64,000 bases of DNA from Candidatus Yanofskybacteria bacterium. Its GTDB lineage: Bacteria > Patescibacteriota > Minisyncoccia > 2-02-FULL-40-12 > IGHO2-01-FULL-4-A. The translations under genes and the position numbers were made by a program. Location of the stretch: assembly GCA_903897805.1 (NCBI GenBank), contig CAIUCV010000005.1, positions 2,384-66,383 on the forward strand. Direction: 5' to 3'. Below, in pieces: positions 17,012 to 47,422 of the stretch (the stretch's first letter is position 1; each line of letters begins with the position of its first letter). The notes beneath the pieces were generated by a model, which made no database searches, had not been told where the DNA came from, and saw only the letters and a list, made by a program, of their open reading frames with translations.

Positions 17012-17098
17012 GGTGGGGTGCGAGAGTGGTTGAATCGGCCGCACTCGAAATGCGGTAAGGGCGCAAGCTCTTCGTGGGTTCGAATCCCACCCCCACCG
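17012..17098 (+). tRNA. tRNA-Ser (anticodon CGA), long variable arm; CCA not encoded
   Basis: Acceptor GGTGGGG/CCCCACC, anticodon stem CCGCA/TGCGG with loop CTCGAAA, T-arm GTGGG-TTCGAAT-CCCAC, discriminator G. Confidence 0.75.
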
Positions 17099-17141
17099 CA
17101 ATGACAATTTTTTACACCTTTTGATGTTAAAAATTGGCATC

Positions 17142-17159
17142 GCAGTGGTGGGATTCGAA
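17142..17159. repeat. Inverted partial copy of the tRNA-Ser 3' end (GCAGTGGTGGGATTCGAA vs TTCGAATCCCACCCCCACCGC) 44 nt downstream of the tRNA
   Basis: Seen directly; could pair with the tRNA T-arm/acceptor region to form a long hairpin. Confidence 0.5.
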
Positions 17160-17257
17160 GGGTATCCGAGAGAGTGAATTGCTTCACTACGCTGGCCATA
17201 AAACAGCTTGAAAATGGCCCGTCCTGAGGCTATCGAAAGGCTGTTTTTTGTTGGGCT

Positions 17258-19037: not shown

Positions 19038-19109
19038 GTCCCCATAGCTCAGCGGAAGAGCGTCTCCCTCCGGAGGAGAAGGTCGGAGGTTCAAATCCTC
19101 CTGGGGATA
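19038..19109 (+). tRNA. tRNA-Arg (anticodon CCG)
   Basis: Acceptor GTCCCCA/TGGGGAT (G1-U72), anticodon stem TCTCC/GGAGA with loop CTCCGGA, T-arm GGAGG-TTCAAAT-CCTCC, discriminator A. Confidence 0.75.
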
Positions 19110-19142
19110 CAAAATATTACCGGAGTGCTCAAACTGCTTTAA

Positions 19143-19270
19143 GTACGTGAGGATTTGAACGCCGGAGCGATGTTCGGCGAGCAGTTGGCGAGCCGAACCA
19201 CGAGGCGATGGCTAGGCCGAGGAGGCGGAAGCCGACGAGAGCCGAAGCCAAATCCTCCTGGGGATACAAA
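19143..19270 (+). repeat. Structured repeat element A (~125 nt) following tRNA-Arg(CCG): the 5' end is the inverted complement of the tRNA T-arm and the 3' end is a direct 25-nt copy of the tRNA 3' end
   Basis: GTGAGGATTTGAAC pairs with GTTCAAATCCTC of the tRNA. AAATCCTCCTGGGGATACAAAATAT is duplicated at 19251..19275. Internal hairpins are present. It is homologous to element B. Confidence 0.6.
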
Positions 19271-19276
19271 ATATCA

Positions 19277-19348
19277 CCCCTTGTAGTTCAACGGACAGAA
19301 CGCGAGATTGCGGATCTCGTAATAGAGGTTCGATTCCTCTCAAGGGGA
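19277..19348 (+). tRNA. tRNA-Arg (anticodon GCG as read from the sequence)
   Basis: Acceptor CCCCTTG/CAAGGGG, D-arm GTTC..GAAC with GG, anticodon stem CGAGA/TCTCG with loop TTGCGGA, T-arm AGAGG-TTCGATT-CCTCT, discriminator A. Confidence 0.7.
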
Positions 19349-19385
19349 CACGAATGAAATGGGTGGGCGCTTGAAGCAAGCCAAT

Positions 19386-19512
19386 TGTTTGGCTTGTGTG
19401 AGGAATCGAACGCCGGAGCATGTGATTTTCCGCGTTCGGCGGAAAATCACGCGAGGCGGTGGCTAGGCCGAGCGGGCGGAAGCCCGCGAGAGCCAAAGCC
19501 GAATTCTCGAGG
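19386..19512 (+). repeat. Structured repeat element B (~125 nt) following tRNA-Arg(GCG), paralogous to element A
   Basis: GTGAGGAATCGAAC is the inverted complement of the tRNA T-arm TTCGATTCCTC. It contains a perfect 12-bp hairpin GTGATTTTCCGC-gttcg-GCGGAAAATCAC and a GCGGGC-GGAA-GCCCGC tetraloop hairpin. The 3' end GAATTCTCGAGGGGATA resembles the tRNA 3' end. Confidence 0.6.
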
Positions 19513-19549
19513 GGATAACCAACTAAAATACCCGCCAGCGGCGGGTATT
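19509..19549. repeat. Perfect 19-bp stem hairpin (ACCAACTAAAATACCCGCC-agc-GGCGGGTATTTTAGTTGGT)
   Basis: Seen directly at the end of element B; no T-run on either strand. Confidence 0.6.
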
Positions 19550-19715
19550 TTAGTTGGTTGATGTCCTTGACAAGCTTTTGTGCCGGGGGTATAGAGAAAG
19601 TGGCTAGTGGAATAAAGTTTCTAGAAGCCTTGAAACTTTACATTAGTACCTTGACAATTAAAGTGGGCCCCATAAAGGCGCCCTCGGCACCCAACTAACC
19701 AAAAGGAGGGAGATC

Positions 19716-31906: not shown

Positions 31907-32349
31907 TTTTCGGTGATGGTAATTTTTCTGGTGTTGTTCCCCAGGTGGTCAATATGAATCTTTATGCGTTTTTGGGGTAAAATCGGCCGAACTCTCTCGG
32001 CCCATTCAATCAGGATTATATTTCCCGGGTCGGCGAAAATATCTTTTACGCCAAGCGAAGCCAAGTCATGCCAGTCCCTAAGGCGGAAGGCGTCAATATG
32101 GACTAATAGTTTCCAGTTTATAGTTTTCAGTTTATAGTGACGCATTAAGACAAAAGTCGGGCTGGTGATTCTTTGTCTTATTTTTAACGCTTTGGCGAAT
32201 CCCTGGATGAAGGTTGTTTTTCCCGCTCCCAATTCACCCTCCAGGGCGAAGATGCGGGCATGTTTAAGCGGTTTGGAGTTTGCGGTTTTTTGGGCCAAAT
32301 TGGCGGCTAATTTTTGGGTTTCTTTTGCGCCCCTCGTCTTAAAAATCAT
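31903..32349 (-). CDS. tsaE: tRNA t6A37 threonylcarbamoyladenosine biosynthesis protein TsaE
   Basis: P-loop GELGAGKTTF; ~150 aa. Confidence 0.75.
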   Translation of the reverse strand: MIFKTRGAKETQKLAANLAQKTANSKPLKHARIFALEGELGAGKTTFIQGFAKALKIRQRITSPTFVLMRHYKLKTINWKLLVHIDAFRLRDWHDLASLGVKDIFADPGNIILIEWAERVRPILPQKRIKIHIDHLGNNTRKITITEK

Positions 32350-32413
32350 GTCCTTATCTTAACCTTCTCAAGGGCTTTTTTCAAATGATTTTTACCTTGT
32401 TGTGAGGGTTTGA

Positions 32414-32474
32414 AAATAAAAAAACCCGCCTGTCAGAGGTCGCCGAGAAGTGGCGACATAACAAAGCGGGGGTC
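32414..32474 (-). terminator. Strong rho-independent terminator (nested GC hairpin, then TTTTTTTATTTT on the minus strand)
   Basis: ACCCGC...GTCGCC-gagaagt-GGCGAC...GCGGGGG; closes the GC-rich operon. Confidence 0.7.
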
Positions 32475-32499
32475 TGCGCACGAGGTGCACAGGAAAGAA

Positions 32500-33126
32500 C
32501 TAGGGATCCTGCCGGCTCTCCAACCAGCGGGCTGTGGCCTCGTCCAACTCCTGTGGAACGGGGTGAGGGTTGACTCGCGCCGGCTCTGCTGTGACTGGTC
32601 GCGAAAGTTCATCAGCAATCCGGTTGAGCCCGCGCTCGACTGGGGAAAGATCAAGCGGTGGCGGTGCCGGTGCGGCTGGCTGGCTCACGGCTATCGAAAC
32701 CGCAGGCAGAACGGGCGGTGGCGCTGGTACCGACGGCACGGGAACCGTGGCCGCCACAACTGCGGTGCAAGGGGGCTTGCACGGGTTAGCGTGCCAGCCC
32801 AACAGGAAGCCACCGTAGAACAGCCAGAGGAGTGCTGCCGCTCCTCCGATGCGGAGCATCCAGAGGAGGAACCTGTACCAGTTATGGTTTATCAGGTTCT
32901 CGTTGCGGCTGACCTGCACACTAGTCAGCCTTTGCTGGTACTGGACGTTACCGCCGTGTGCTTGCGGGGGCGGCGGAGTTGCCGGAGCCCGCTGGAGCCG
33001 TGGAGCTGGAGCCGGCGGTGGATTCCCCGCTCCGGCGCAGTTCGAGCAGGTTAACTGCCCGGCCGGGACATTGGCCCCGCAAGTGGGGCAAGTCCAAGTG
33101 AGAGGAGGAATATGATTGGCGGCCAT
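32500..33126 (-). CDS. Zinc-ribbon / TM / proline-rich membrane protein (GC-rich island gene B)
   Basis: RBS AAGGAGGG 7 nt upstream; CPTC..CSNC zinc ribbon, one TM helix (WYRFLLWMLRIGGAAALLWLFYGGFLLGW), Pro-rich tail. The opposite-strand ORF 32410..33054 was rejected. Confidence 0.5.
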   Translation of the reverse strand: MAANHIPPLTWTCPTCGANVPAGQLTCSNCAGAGNPPPAPAPRLQRAPATPPPPQAHGGNVQYQQRLTSVQVSRNENLINHNWYRFLLWMLRIGGAAALLWLFYGGFLLGWHANPCKPPCTAVVAATVPVPSVPAPPPVLPAVSIAVSQPAAPAPPPLDLSPVERGLNRIADELSRPVTAEPARVNPHPVPQELDEATARWLESRQDP

Positions 33127-33127
33127 G

Positions 33128-33922
33128 TTAGTTCCCTCCTTCTGGCGCGCCGGGCGCCATTAGTACGAAGCCGATGAATCCGGGCTGGTTAGAAGCCTGA
33201 ACTCTTGCTTCAAACTCTACCCGTTCGCCCGAGGCGCCTGCCCCGGATGACTTCCCGCCAACTTGGCCATCGGGCGGGAAAATTCTGATGGTCTGAAGAG
33301 GCCGGAGAACTACTTGTTCGCCGCAGATGACCATTGGCCCGCTTCCTACTGTCGGGTAGAAGGTGAACCGATCCGAAGCATTTTTGAGCCGCCATGAGCT
33401 GGCGGCTAGCTGATTCAGACAGGCCTGCTTTTCGGCGGTCTGTTGCTGAGTAGTAGCTTCTGCCTCGGCAGATCTCTGCCGGTCATCCTGCTCGCGGGCA
33501 AGAGCCTCGCAAGCCTGTCGGTTTGATTTCTTCCGGCAGTCCAGCGGCTTTTGCTCCCTCGATGAAGTCGGAGCGGAGTAATACTGTCTCCCGTCGGGGG
33601 TTGCAGCATACGCTGTCTGGTTGTTGCGCGAGACGGCCCGGGCGACTAGACCGCCGGTGATTGCACCAGCGATAGCACCGGTAGCGGCGCTGACTAGCAT
33701 GCCGCGGCCGTTGCCGTAGTAGCCGTAGCCACCATACCCGCCGTAGCCGTAACCGTAGTTGTTGAGCATGTAGTCGACGGGGGCGTATCCCTGCCGGGCG
33801 TAGCGCTCGGCACAGGGGCCTGGGGTCAAGTCACAGGTAGTCGTGCCGAATCGTTGCGCGTTTGCTACCACCGCGAAGGTGGCGGCGAAAAACAACAGAG
33901 CGAAGAACACCTTACGTGTCAT
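33128..33922 (-). CDS. Secreted protein with a Gly/Tyr repeat (YGYGYGGYGGYGYYGNG) and a glycine-zipper segment (GC-rich island gene A); start trimmed to the RBS-supported ATG
   Basis: RBS AGGAGGA; signal peptide MTRKVFFALLFFAATFAVVANA; glycine zipper AATGAIAGAITGG. Confidence 0.5.
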   Translation of the reverse strand: MTRKVFFALLFFAATFAVVANAQRFGTTTCDLTPGPCAERYARQGYAPVDYMLNNYGYGYGGYGGYGYYGNGRGMLVSAATGAIAGAITGGLVARAVSRNNQTAYAATPDGRQYYSAPTSSREQKPLDCRKKSNRQACEALAREQDDRQRSAEAEATTQQQTAEKQACLNQLAASSWRLKNASDRFTFYPTVGSGPMVICGEQVVLRPLQTIRIFPPDGQVGGKSSGAGASGERVEFEARVQASNQPGFIGFVLMAPGAPEGGN

Positions 33923-33990
33923 CGAAATCCTCCTAATTCCTTTCGAAAGGGGACGAGATGTCAAAGAACGAACCTCATCCTGATGTATTA

Positions 33991-34019
33991 ATTATAGCAA
34001 AATCTTACAGCAAAGTCAA
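33991..34019 (-). promoter_or_regulatory. Consensus sigma70 promoter TTGACT-17-TATAAT on the minus strand driving the GC-rich two-gene operon
   Basis: Read from the reverse complement of 33991..34019. Confidence 0.55.
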
Positions 34020-46860: not shown

Positions 46861-46873
46861 TGGAGATGTGGGC
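46861..46873. repeat. 13-nt direct repeat of the tmRNA 3'-end sequence (GTGGAGATGTGGG), 210 bp from the tmRNA 3' end
   Basis: Identical 13-mer at 46861..46873 and 47071..47083; chance expectation in 64 kb is ~0.001. Confidence 0.6.
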
Positions 46874-47027
46874 ATTGAAGCCAACTGCTTGGCTTCAATC
46901 GGAATTTTAGCGAGGCCTCCGTGCCGAGCGGCTTAAAATCAGAATGATTTTAAGAAAAATTCAGGGAAGAACTTATCGCCCGAAGGGCGATTGTTCAACT
47001 CCGCAGCTTTGCTGCAATAATAAAACA

Positions 47028-47059
47028 AAAAGCGTCCTTTAATGGGACGCCTTTTGTTT
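47028..47059. terminator. Bidirectional terminator (AGCGTCC-tttaat-GGACGCC flanked by A- and T-runs) immediately 3' of the tmRNA
   Basis: Seen directly. Confidence 0.65.
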
Positions 47060-47070
47060 TATTACCACAG

Positions 47071-47422
47071 TGGAGATGTGGGGAGTTGAACCCCAGTCTG
47101 GAAAATGATTTAAAATTGCACTACAAGTTTAGCCGGGTTGATTAGACTTCAGTTAAAAACCCGACAAAATAACCAAAGACCTATTTTGTATTTTTCGTGC
47201 TCTATCGCTAAAACATTGAAAAGGTGATAGGGCCTTATCCTGCTGATGACGCCCTGGTCCGGTTAGCAGAAATCACCGGGAGGACGCGCCTTAAGCGTAA
47301 GCTAGGGCGTAATTGCTGTTGTAATTGGCAATTATGATTTTGGGTAAATGATTTAAGTGGTGATTATCCATCCACTACTTGCGCAGATTTTAAAAGAAAT
47401 TCCATCGAAGCCGGTCATCCCC
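47071..47422 (-). ncRNA. ssrA: tmRNA (SsrA), standard one-piece, ~352 nt; predicted tag ANYNSNYALAYA
   Basis: 5' GGGGAUGACCGGCUUCGAUGG, consistent with a GGGGNUGA tmRNA 5' end. 3' T-arm UGGGG-UUCAACU-CCCCA + CAUCUCC + A discriminator, with a G3-U70 wobble. Tag ORF GCC AAT TAC AAC AGC AAT TAC GCC CTA GCT TAC GCT TAA. Adjacent to smpB. Confidence 0.8.

Follow-up and report, generated by a model that had tools for sequence, protein, structure and literature searches.

The 64-kb window analyzed here, a stretch of 64,000 nucleotides from contig CAIUCV010000005.1 of a Candidatus Yanofskybacteria bacterium, carries a pair of tRNA-Arg genes, tRNA-Arg(CCG) and tRNA-Arg(GCG), each followed by a short structured element, designated A and B, respectively. 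An initial annotation, made from the sequence alone, had proposed these genes and elements, and both tRNA genes proved to be real. A neighboring 218-aa protein assigns the window to Patescibacteria. A and B are copies of an apparently undescribed, highly structured mobile insert in tRNA T-loops, which contains no open reading frame (ORF) and is referred to below as module E. No ORF was found inside either insert, and no description of module E was found in the searchable full-text literature. The positions of the features are listed in Table 1.

Table 1. Features of the tRNA-Arg locus and of related inserts in the window
Feature	Position	Strand	Description
tRNA-Arg(CCG)	19038..19110	+	ARAGORN and Rfam; C56 = 19092, insertion point between 19092 and 19093
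D1 of A	19093..19117	+	tRNA A57-A73 with 8 nt of trailer; forms the left end of the insert
H0 hairpin of A	19125..19146	+	GTGCTCAAA-CTGC-TTTAAGTAC, imperfect; aligns with the covarying H0 helix of the family
IT of A	19149..19160	+	GAGGATTTGAAC, inverted copy of tRNA-Arg(CCG) positions 53-64, 12/12
Conserved core of A	19161..19249	+	nhmmer E value 7e-27; covariance model (CM) score 151.9 bits; covariation
D2 of A	19250..19274	+	displaced native tRNA-Arg(CCG) 3' end plus native spacer, runs into tRNA-Arg(GCG)
tRNA-Arg(GCG)	19277..19349	+	ARAGORN and Rfam; C56 = 19331; 19332-19349 = D1 of B
H0 hairpin of B	19376..19397	+	GCAAGCCAA-TTGT-TTGGCTTGT
IT of B	19400..19411	+	GAGGAATCGAAC, inverted copy of tRNA-Arg(GCG) positions 53-64, 12/12
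Conserved core of B	19412..19500	+	nhmmer E value 9e-28; CM score 131.5 bits
D2 of B	19501..19517	+	GAATTCTCGAGGGGATA, decayed displaced native 3' end of tRNA-Arg(GCG)
Native terminator hairpin of the tRNA-Arg pair	19518..19559 (about)	+	20 bp, perfect; outside element B
Truncated relic, different core family	17100..17190	+	after tRNA-Ser(CGA); displaced 3' copy gone
tmRNA-linked insert, same layout	46861..47069	-	downstream of the tmRNA gene (47070-47422)

From 5' to 3', the layout at a module E insertion is a first direct repeat (D1), a loop, an acceptor-like inverted copy, a hairpin (H0), an inverted T-arm copy (IT), a conserved core of roughly 90 nt, and a second direct repeat (D2). D1 comprises tRNA positions 57 to about 74 and is sometimes followed by a terminator of its own. 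The loop carries the motif GAACG(C/A)AGTGA in one subfamily. The acceptor-like segment, an approximate inverted copy of the acceptor 3' strand, is present in many copies and can extend into the gene trailer; it forms a perfect 19-bp palindrome in L001 (L numbers designate the loci compared) and matches at 13/14 positions in L042 and 12/13 in L079. IT is an inverted copy of positions 53/57-64 and terminates in GAAC or GAGAAC.

In the window, the 25-mer AAATCCTCCTGGGGATACAAAATAT is present exactly twice, at 19093-19117 and 19250-19274. The 12-mers GAGGATTTGAAC (19149-19160) and GAGGAATCGAAC (19400-19411) are the exact reverse complements of GTTCAAATCCTC and GTTCGATTCCTC, respectively. The direct repeat and the inverted T-arm copies described in the initial annotation were thus reproduced, as were the conserved boxes, the 12-bp stem in B, and the GGAA hairpins. 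The core of A contains P2 (CGCC/GGCG), the variable hairpin P2b, P3 (GGCUAGGCC.../...GCCGAAGCC), and the GGAA hairpin P3c. The two blocks first delimited as elements are real, but they begin at 19147 (A) and 19398 (B) rather than at 19143 and 19386; the latter position lies inside H0, which is itself part of the element.

Relatives of the window were obtained through homologues of the 218-aa protein (87%, 83%, and 78% identical; loci L001/L002, L003, and L004). In 3/3 close relatives, the two tRNA-Arg genes lie 10 to 11 nt apart, free of inserts and with the terminator directly after them; the spacer between them in L003 is CAAAATATTAT. The tRNA-Arg(CCG) of the window is identical to its counterpart in L001 and L004. 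Compared with the state of the relatives, A amounts to 157 nt (19093-19249) inserted between C56 and A57 of the T-loop, and B to 169 nt (19332-19500) inserted at the same T-loop position of the second tRNA-Arg. Because three close relatives have the same tRNA-Arg genes without inserts, A and B are insertions.

The polarity of the insertion could be read from B. D2 of B keeps the ancestral CGAGGGG of L003 and is followed by the terminator that stands after the tRNA in that relative, indicating that D2 is the displaced native end and that D1 came with the insert. The perfect hairpin that had been taken for the end of B is this native tRNA terminator, since the same hairpin directly follows the tRNA in L003. 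The acceptor pair of tRNA-Arg(GCG) is now U:A, with both strands changed, and C:G is kept in L003 and in the displaced copy. For A, the polarity was inferred from other loci (L024, L072, and L001/L003), in which the encoded CCA is kept by D2 and absent from D1. D2 starts at R57 in every core family seen, and in 14 of the 24 scored copies D1 and D2 match exactly from position 57 to position 73. Displaced 3' fragments were found downstream of module E in most complete copies, the exceptions being L052, L076, and the relic at 17100-17190. These comparisons indicate that the insert supplies a replacement tRNA 3' end, which keeps the tRNA intact, and that the old 3' end is pushed downstream and decays. 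D1 of A functions as the 3' end of tRNA-Arg(CCG). The direct copy at the 3' end of each element, which had been read as a mimic of the tRNA, is therefore real but is the old tRNA 3' end itself, decaying in B. The repeats resemble att-type duplications in their behavior: the element brings the first copy, and the second is the displaced native end. This agrees with one of the explanations offered earlier.

RNAalifold analysis of 27 copies gave H0, a closing helix P1 (IT with D2), an invariant P2, a covarying P2b, a near-invariant P3, and a variable P3c. In the resulting model, IT pairs with D2 on the tRNA-sense strand, closing the core into a three-way fold; in A, IT forms the 5' strand of P1 and is predicted to pair with 19250-19258. 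The proportion of paired cells was 95.1%, a level reached by none of 500 shuffles and nowhere near reached by slid controls, and compensatory changes were present in 23 of the 37 pairs. G:U combinations exceeded A:C combinations (34 versus 11; P = 8e-4), indicating that the folded strand is the tRNA-sense strand, as RNA or single-stranded DNA. The earlier suggestion of a structured nucleic acid is thus supported by both covariation and G:U excess. The core also contains invariant unpaired nucleotides, a GNRA loop, tandem G.A motifs, and two variable hairpins. When tRNA-Arg(CCG) and A were folded together (19038-19276), the predicted minimum free energy fold was not a cloverleaf beside a closed element; IT of A paired with the tRNA's own T-arm, and D2 completed the acceptor stem with the tRNA 5' strand.

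A pattern scan of genomes gave 60 loci, of which an nhmmer profile of A and B retained 10, all in CPR (candidate phyla radiation)-like contexts, and removed 50 as chance matches in high-GC genomes. A scan of metagenomes gave 21 loci, and the profile confirmed 21/21. A pattern match on a viral contig (L005) was unconfirmed by the profile and was rejected. Cores of module E are thus present at 31 further loci (10 from genomes and 21 from metagenomes), all in CPR-like contexts, and nearly all lie just downstream of a co-oriented tRNA gene. The distance from the tRNA, in copies with upstream sequence, is 21 to 106 nt, or 311 nt in the nested L067, and only L074 and L080 are exceptions to the linkage. 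About 16 anticodons carry the module, among tRNAs for Arg, Asn, Ser, Asp, Pro, Leu, Gly, Ala, Thr, Met, Tyr, and Lys. For the 64 tRNAs present in the CPR loci, an inverted T-arm copy (at least 11/12) was detected within 350 nt downstream in 18/64 and upstream in 0/64, and a direct copy of positions 57-72 (at least 14/16) within the same distance downstream in 24/64 and upstream in 0/64. Inserts with diverged or unrelated cores were found at tRNA-Ser in L003, tRNA-Ala in L038, tRNA-Gly in L058, tRNA-Arg in L067, tRNA-Trp in L073, and the tmRNA gene of the window. The elements have no known family assignment in Rfam 15, no match of which overlapped 19117-19274 or 19368-19520 even at E values up to 10, and no phage, plasmid, or viral match to them was obtained with blastn.

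L074 and L080 are 99.6% identical from a CCCGC and terminator through module E and onward, and their upstream sequences are wholly different and contain no tRNA; in L074, the upstream sequence includes an ORF of about 150 aa that appears HEPN-like by eye only. This pattern could reflect a rearrangement or an assembly chimera at the repeat. Two contigs bearing module E (L023 and L058) are labeled as Gammaproteobacteria metagenome-assembled genomes (MAGs); their tRNA clusters and module E look CPR-like, and mis-binning is possible.

The cores of A and B are 67% identical, and each has a nearer copy in another organism: A in L079 at a tRNA-Leu (89%) and B in L086 at a tRNA-Lys (87%). A and B are therefore two independent insertions and not local paralogues, as they had been described. 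Two copies in one MAG (L024 and L036) have cores that are 95% identical and identical H0 hairpins, but their IT and acceptor-like segments differ, each matching its own tRNA. The variable hexamer of IT was exact for the cognate tRNA in 18/24 copies, compared with 9/548 noncognate pairings. Since near-identical cores carry cognate-specific ITs, the target-specific parts must be replaced far faster than the rest of the module. Template-switch correction of quasi-palindromes, which is established in other bacteria, is one candidate for the rewriting of IT, although the constant GA mismatch of the GAGAAC subfamily speaks against simple full correction. Tandem arrays of the module in L023 and L069 indicate that an occupied tRNA can be hit again; the 96-nt repeat of L069 was also considered as a long target-site duplication, which was rejected in favor of a tandem array or a contig-end repeat of the whole unit. 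The earlier proposal of a tRNA-linked miniature mobile element holds. As the repeats are att-like and the inserts mobile, the att-remnant and miniature-element explanations turn out to be parts of one answer.

All-against-all clustering of the ORFs in the flanks of module E gave a single recurring family, a small GIY-YIG protein. The CPR loci, 268 kb in total, contain six GIY-YIG ORFs, and 6/6 are located directly upstream of, and co-oriented with, a tRNA bearing module E, and L003 has a LAGLIDADG ORF at the equivalent spot (Pfam E values of 1e-13 to 1e-17 for GIY-YIG and 4e-8 for LAGLIDADG_3). The loci concerned are L036, L067 (two ORFs), L071, L072, L084, and L003, and some of the ORFs overlap the tRNA start. 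An endonuclease ORF adjoined 7/28 tRNAs bearing module E versus 0/40 insert-free tRNAs (P = 0.0012). The associated GIY-YIG proteins have only 80 to 87 aa, corresponding to the catalytic domain alone. The core family differs with the type of endonuclease, GIY-YIG occurring with family A or C and LAGLIDADG with family B.

A displaced tRNA 5' fragment was found upstream of the endonuclease ORF in 6/7 loci, the exception being L071. It covers positions 1-56 in L036 and positions 1-14 or 1-17 elsewhere, and in the GIY-YIG loci that carry a fragment, it is followed by two GC-rich hairpins. From this order, the fuller unit comprises the 5' fragment, the endonuclease gene, an intact tRNA, module E, and the 3' fragment. 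The whole tRNA of L001 is unlike the displaced fragment, which indicates that the tRNA moves together with the unit. GIY-YIG homologues chosen by protein alone (L087 to L091) are located inside or abutting partly duplicated tRNA genes, at varied positions. One of these loci, L090, has several tRNA-Asp pseudo-copies around its GIY-YIG gene (positions 1-1100), with small hairpin insertions (TCCCGA...TCGGGA type) in the variable region and T-arm; in the displaced 5' fragment of L036, a similar hairpin replaces the anticodon arm.

Two other inserts of this kind are present in the window. After tRNA-Ser(CGA), the inverted T-arm copy GGTGGGATTCGAA (17147-17159) matches at 13/13 positions, as the initial annotation had noticed. 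Over 115 nt, the relic to which it belongs (17100-17190) shares 95% identity with the left part of the insert that follows tRNA-Ser(GCT) in L003. That insert is complete and keeps the displaced copy GAATCCCACCCCTTCCGCCA; the rest of the core is missing from the relic. In the insert at the tmRNA gene, a terminator and a small hairpin precede the inverted T-arm copy GGAGTTGAAC (46993-47002), which is followed by an unrelated interior some 110 nt long, an H0-like hairpin (46876-46899) centered on an exact GCCAACTGCTTGGC, and a decayed direct copy of the tmRNA 3' end (46861-46880).

Whole tRNA genes are evidently being swapped in the clade of the window, judging by the genes at syntenic sites. At the site corresponding to 17012-17099, three different, nonorthologous tRNA-Ser genes are present among the window, L001, L003, and L004. 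At 19277-19349, two unrelated tRNA-Arg(GCG) genes follow the same tRNA-Arg(CCG) in the window and in the relatives. L004 also contains a diversity-generating retroelement with a reverse transcriptase and bAvd (567-1918), about 2 kb upstream of the syntenic tRNA-Arg locus. Within the window, the region 32000-34000 has a G+C content of 57% against a background of 45% and carries minus-strand ORFs at 32500-33126 and 33128-33964; it may be acquired DNA.

The explanation favored here, held with about even confidence and built on sequence comparison, is that module E belongs, as a non-autonomous structured module, to homing-type elements invading CPR tRNA genes between C56 and R57, with A and B as independent copies. 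The module would be the noncoding 3' part of such tRNA-gene-invading elements, fuller versions of which add a GIY-YIG or LAGLIDADG gene. It would spread by break-induced gene conversion (homing) and may be mobilized in trans after the loss of its own endonuclease gene. Recombination between the repeated tRNA 5' parts could delete the endonuclease gene and produce the state seen in the window, and recombination between D1 and D2 could remove the module cleanly, leaving the empty sites of the relatives. The predicted fold probably forms in the tRNA co-transcript, where it would sequester the displaced fragment from the tRNA and offer a tRNA-like minihelix for processing.

Several observations weigh against this explanation. 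No endonuclease gene was found near A or B or elsewhere in the 64-kb window; mobilization in trans is for this reason only inferred. The locus of a close GIY-YIG homologue, L088, consists of a tRNA, a homing endonuclease gene (HEG), and a displaced fragment without module E, indicating that the endonuclease and the module are separable, and their co-occurrence could merely reflect shared hotspots. The loci were gathered through the core pattern, so that the frequencies reported here are biased. Homing leaves the inverted target copy of the module, and likewise its rewriting for each tRNA, without a reason. Finally, the intact T-loop of an occupied allele would give no immunity to an enzyme that cuts T-loops.

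Among known systems, free-standing HEG cassettes and integrase elements at tRNA genes come closest to module E. In fungal mitochondria, cob and atp6 are followed by LAGLIDADG or GIY-YIG ORFs and a displaced C-terminal gene fragment (PMC6279837), and SegB of phage T4 is a GIY-YIG enzyme in a phage tRNA gene cluster (PMC2330249). As in these cassettes, the invaded essential gene stays functional through a replacement segment, the native segment decays downstream, and a quarter of the related module E loci have a GIY-YIG or LAGLIDADG gene attached. Unlike them, the copies in the window are without ORFs and have a covarying structured core and an inverted target copy, the junction is fixed between C56 and R57 of tRNAs, and the hosts are CPR bacteria and not organelles or phages.

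Genomic islands and prophages with an integrase integrate in the 3' part of tRNA and tmRNA genes, and CIMEs are their integrase-less, cis-mobilizable derivatives. Module E resembles these in that a first repeat supplied by the element restores the tRNA and the second is the displaced native end, as well as in the T-loop crossover, the tandem accretion at one tRNA, and the tmRNA gene that is also hit in the window. It differs in its size of just 155 to 250 nt and in its internal target-complementary segments and conserved fold, which are lacking in island att sites. No recombinase-like ORF recurred within the flanks (about 1 to 7 kb) of the 31 loci, though supply in trans is possible. Module E thus shares the logic of HEG cassettes and of tRNA integrase elements but lacks, at least in cis, the enzyme of the latter and, at A and B, that of the former, and its conserved fold and inverted target copy are additions found in neither.

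Integron attC and CTX-phi attP with XerCD are recombination sites formed by folded single strands. Common to these and module E are a hairpin stem that would reproduce a duplex recombination site, a covarying structure, and one active strand; unlike attC, the module has no R''/R' boxes or integron integrase, and its stem is copied from the target tRNA and is not intrinsic. An attC identity was therefore rejected: the R'' (RYYYAAC) and R' (GTTRRRY) consensus sequences do not fit the left end (TCGAAC or GAGAAC) and the right end (GCC joined to RAAT) of the module, and no integrase is located nearby. Within the same group of hosts, self-splicing group I introns are found in Patescibacteria tRNA genes at positions 35/36 (PMC13011429) and insertion sequences in CPR rRNA genes (PMC11270868). 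Like module E, these inserts are small and structured, occupy stable-RNA genes, and are at times accompanied by homing endonucleases; the segment of module E that is complementary to both sides of the insertion site recalls the internal guide sequence of group I introns. In contrast to those introns, the module lies in the T-loop and not in the anticodon loop, and the duplication regenerates the tRNA so that splicing is unneeded. A group I intron was rejected, as no RF00028 match was obtained at E values up to 10, the last base is C and not G, and an intact tRNA lies upstream. A miniature inverted-repeat transposable element does not agree with an inverted repeat that is target derived and tRNA specific or with a duplication of 18 to 25 nt or more and of variable length. 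Group II introns, archaeal bulge-helix-bulge introns, and IS200/IS605-type ends each fail on defining sequence features, and a coding core was rejected because hairpin lengths differ by non-multiples of three. Copying from a mature tRNA, by analogy with retroviral primer-binding sites, is disfavored since the inverted copy continues into the trailer and not into CCA.

One possible but unlikely alternative to homing makes module E a miniature integrative element, for whose movement a site-specific recombinase would act on a folded single strand, as happens with integron attC or CTX-phi/XerCD. The free circle (D, loop, inverted copy, and core) would fold into a dumbbell whose stem mimics the T-arm and acceptor duplex, and strands would be exchanged at the junction of core and R57 in the element and between C56 and R57 in the target. 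The integrated order (D1, loop, inverted copy from position 74 back to 54, core, D2) is that expected from insertion of a dumbbell circle between positions 56 and 57, and the junction is precise in all core families. The tandem arrays imply that an occupied site stays a target, and the asymmetry of G:T over A:C fits folded top-strand DNA as well. Unlike the homing model, this alternative assigns a function to the inverted copy, but it leaves the link with homing endonucleases unaccounted for. It also faces the lack of a recurring recombinase gene and of attC R-boxes; a new tRNA would require changes in both strands of the stem, and a circle of 155 to 250 nt has no precedent.

A more far-reaching possibility, put forward tentatively and with a low probability on the strength of the sequence layout, is that module E represents a new kind of nucleic-acid-programmed mobile element, in which a folded RNA or single-stranded DNA target mimic directs cleavage or strand exchange between C56 and R57. 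The sense and antisense copies of the acceptor/T-arm minihelix would then constitute a self-made target mimic, the target-specific segments would be retemplated at each move to a new tRNA, and the partner might be the minimal GIY-YIG nuclease or a host enzyme.

It is quite unlikely that the RNA of module E acts in its own spread, either as a scaffold guiding a nuclease to T-loops or as a tRNA-like RNA that is reverse transcribed into DNA. The invariant unpaired nucleotides, GNRA loop, tandem G.A motifs, and variable hairpins do give the core the appearance of a functional RNA, the segment beside this scaffold is complementary to the target and different for each tRNA, and the acceptor-like stem, H0 branch, and P1 have the topology of a tRNA. 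The reduction of the GIY-YIG proteins to a catalytic domain and the variation of the core family with endonuclease type are also consistent with a guided nuclease. Against this stand the locus L088, where the GIY-YIG gene occurs without the module, and the pairing of the guide-like segment with D2 in the same RNA. No reverse transcriptase is linked to the module, the sole one seen being that of the retroelement in L004, and in L001, L042, and L079 the inverted copy enters the gene trailer, which looks untranscribed, and not CCA.

A resident host noncoding RNA, co-transcribed with the tRNAs as a processing signal, decoy, or 3'-trailer small RNA, inherited vertically, and lost by recombination of the repeats, is improbable. 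Such an RNA would account for the strong structural conservation and for the co-orientation with tRNAs; the predicted swap of D1 and D2 in the co-transcript could affect tRNA maturation, and recombination between the repeats is a plausible route of loss. However, the module is missing at the same locus in three close relatives, near-identical cores are found at different tRNAs of one genome, and the copies most similar to A and to B come from other organisms. The tandem arrays, decaying fragments, truncated relics, and several unrelated core families point instead to a selfish mobile entity. Coincidence or low complexity, which the likeness of T-arms among tRNAs makes easy for short matches, is refuted by the cognate hexamers and the downstream bias reported above, and a local tandem duplication of a tRNA, spacer, and element unit is refuted by the core identities, the unrelated sequences of the two tRNA-Arg genes, and the different sublineages of A and B.

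In practical terms, module E inserts break metagenome assemblies at tRNA loci, the tRNA fragments that they leave confuse annotation, and nonorthologous tRNA genes are swapped into syntenic positions. The reduced genomes of CPR bacteria are usually held to be poor in mobile DNA. The tRNA and tmRNA genes of these bacteria are hotspots for small selfish inserts that duplicate parts of genes and spare their function. In module E, a highly conserved folded core lies between an antisense and a sense copy of the target, whose sequences are rewritten from one tRNA to the next, a feature not seen in comparable systems. If this rewriting is mechanistic, it would represent a new way of programming target choice.

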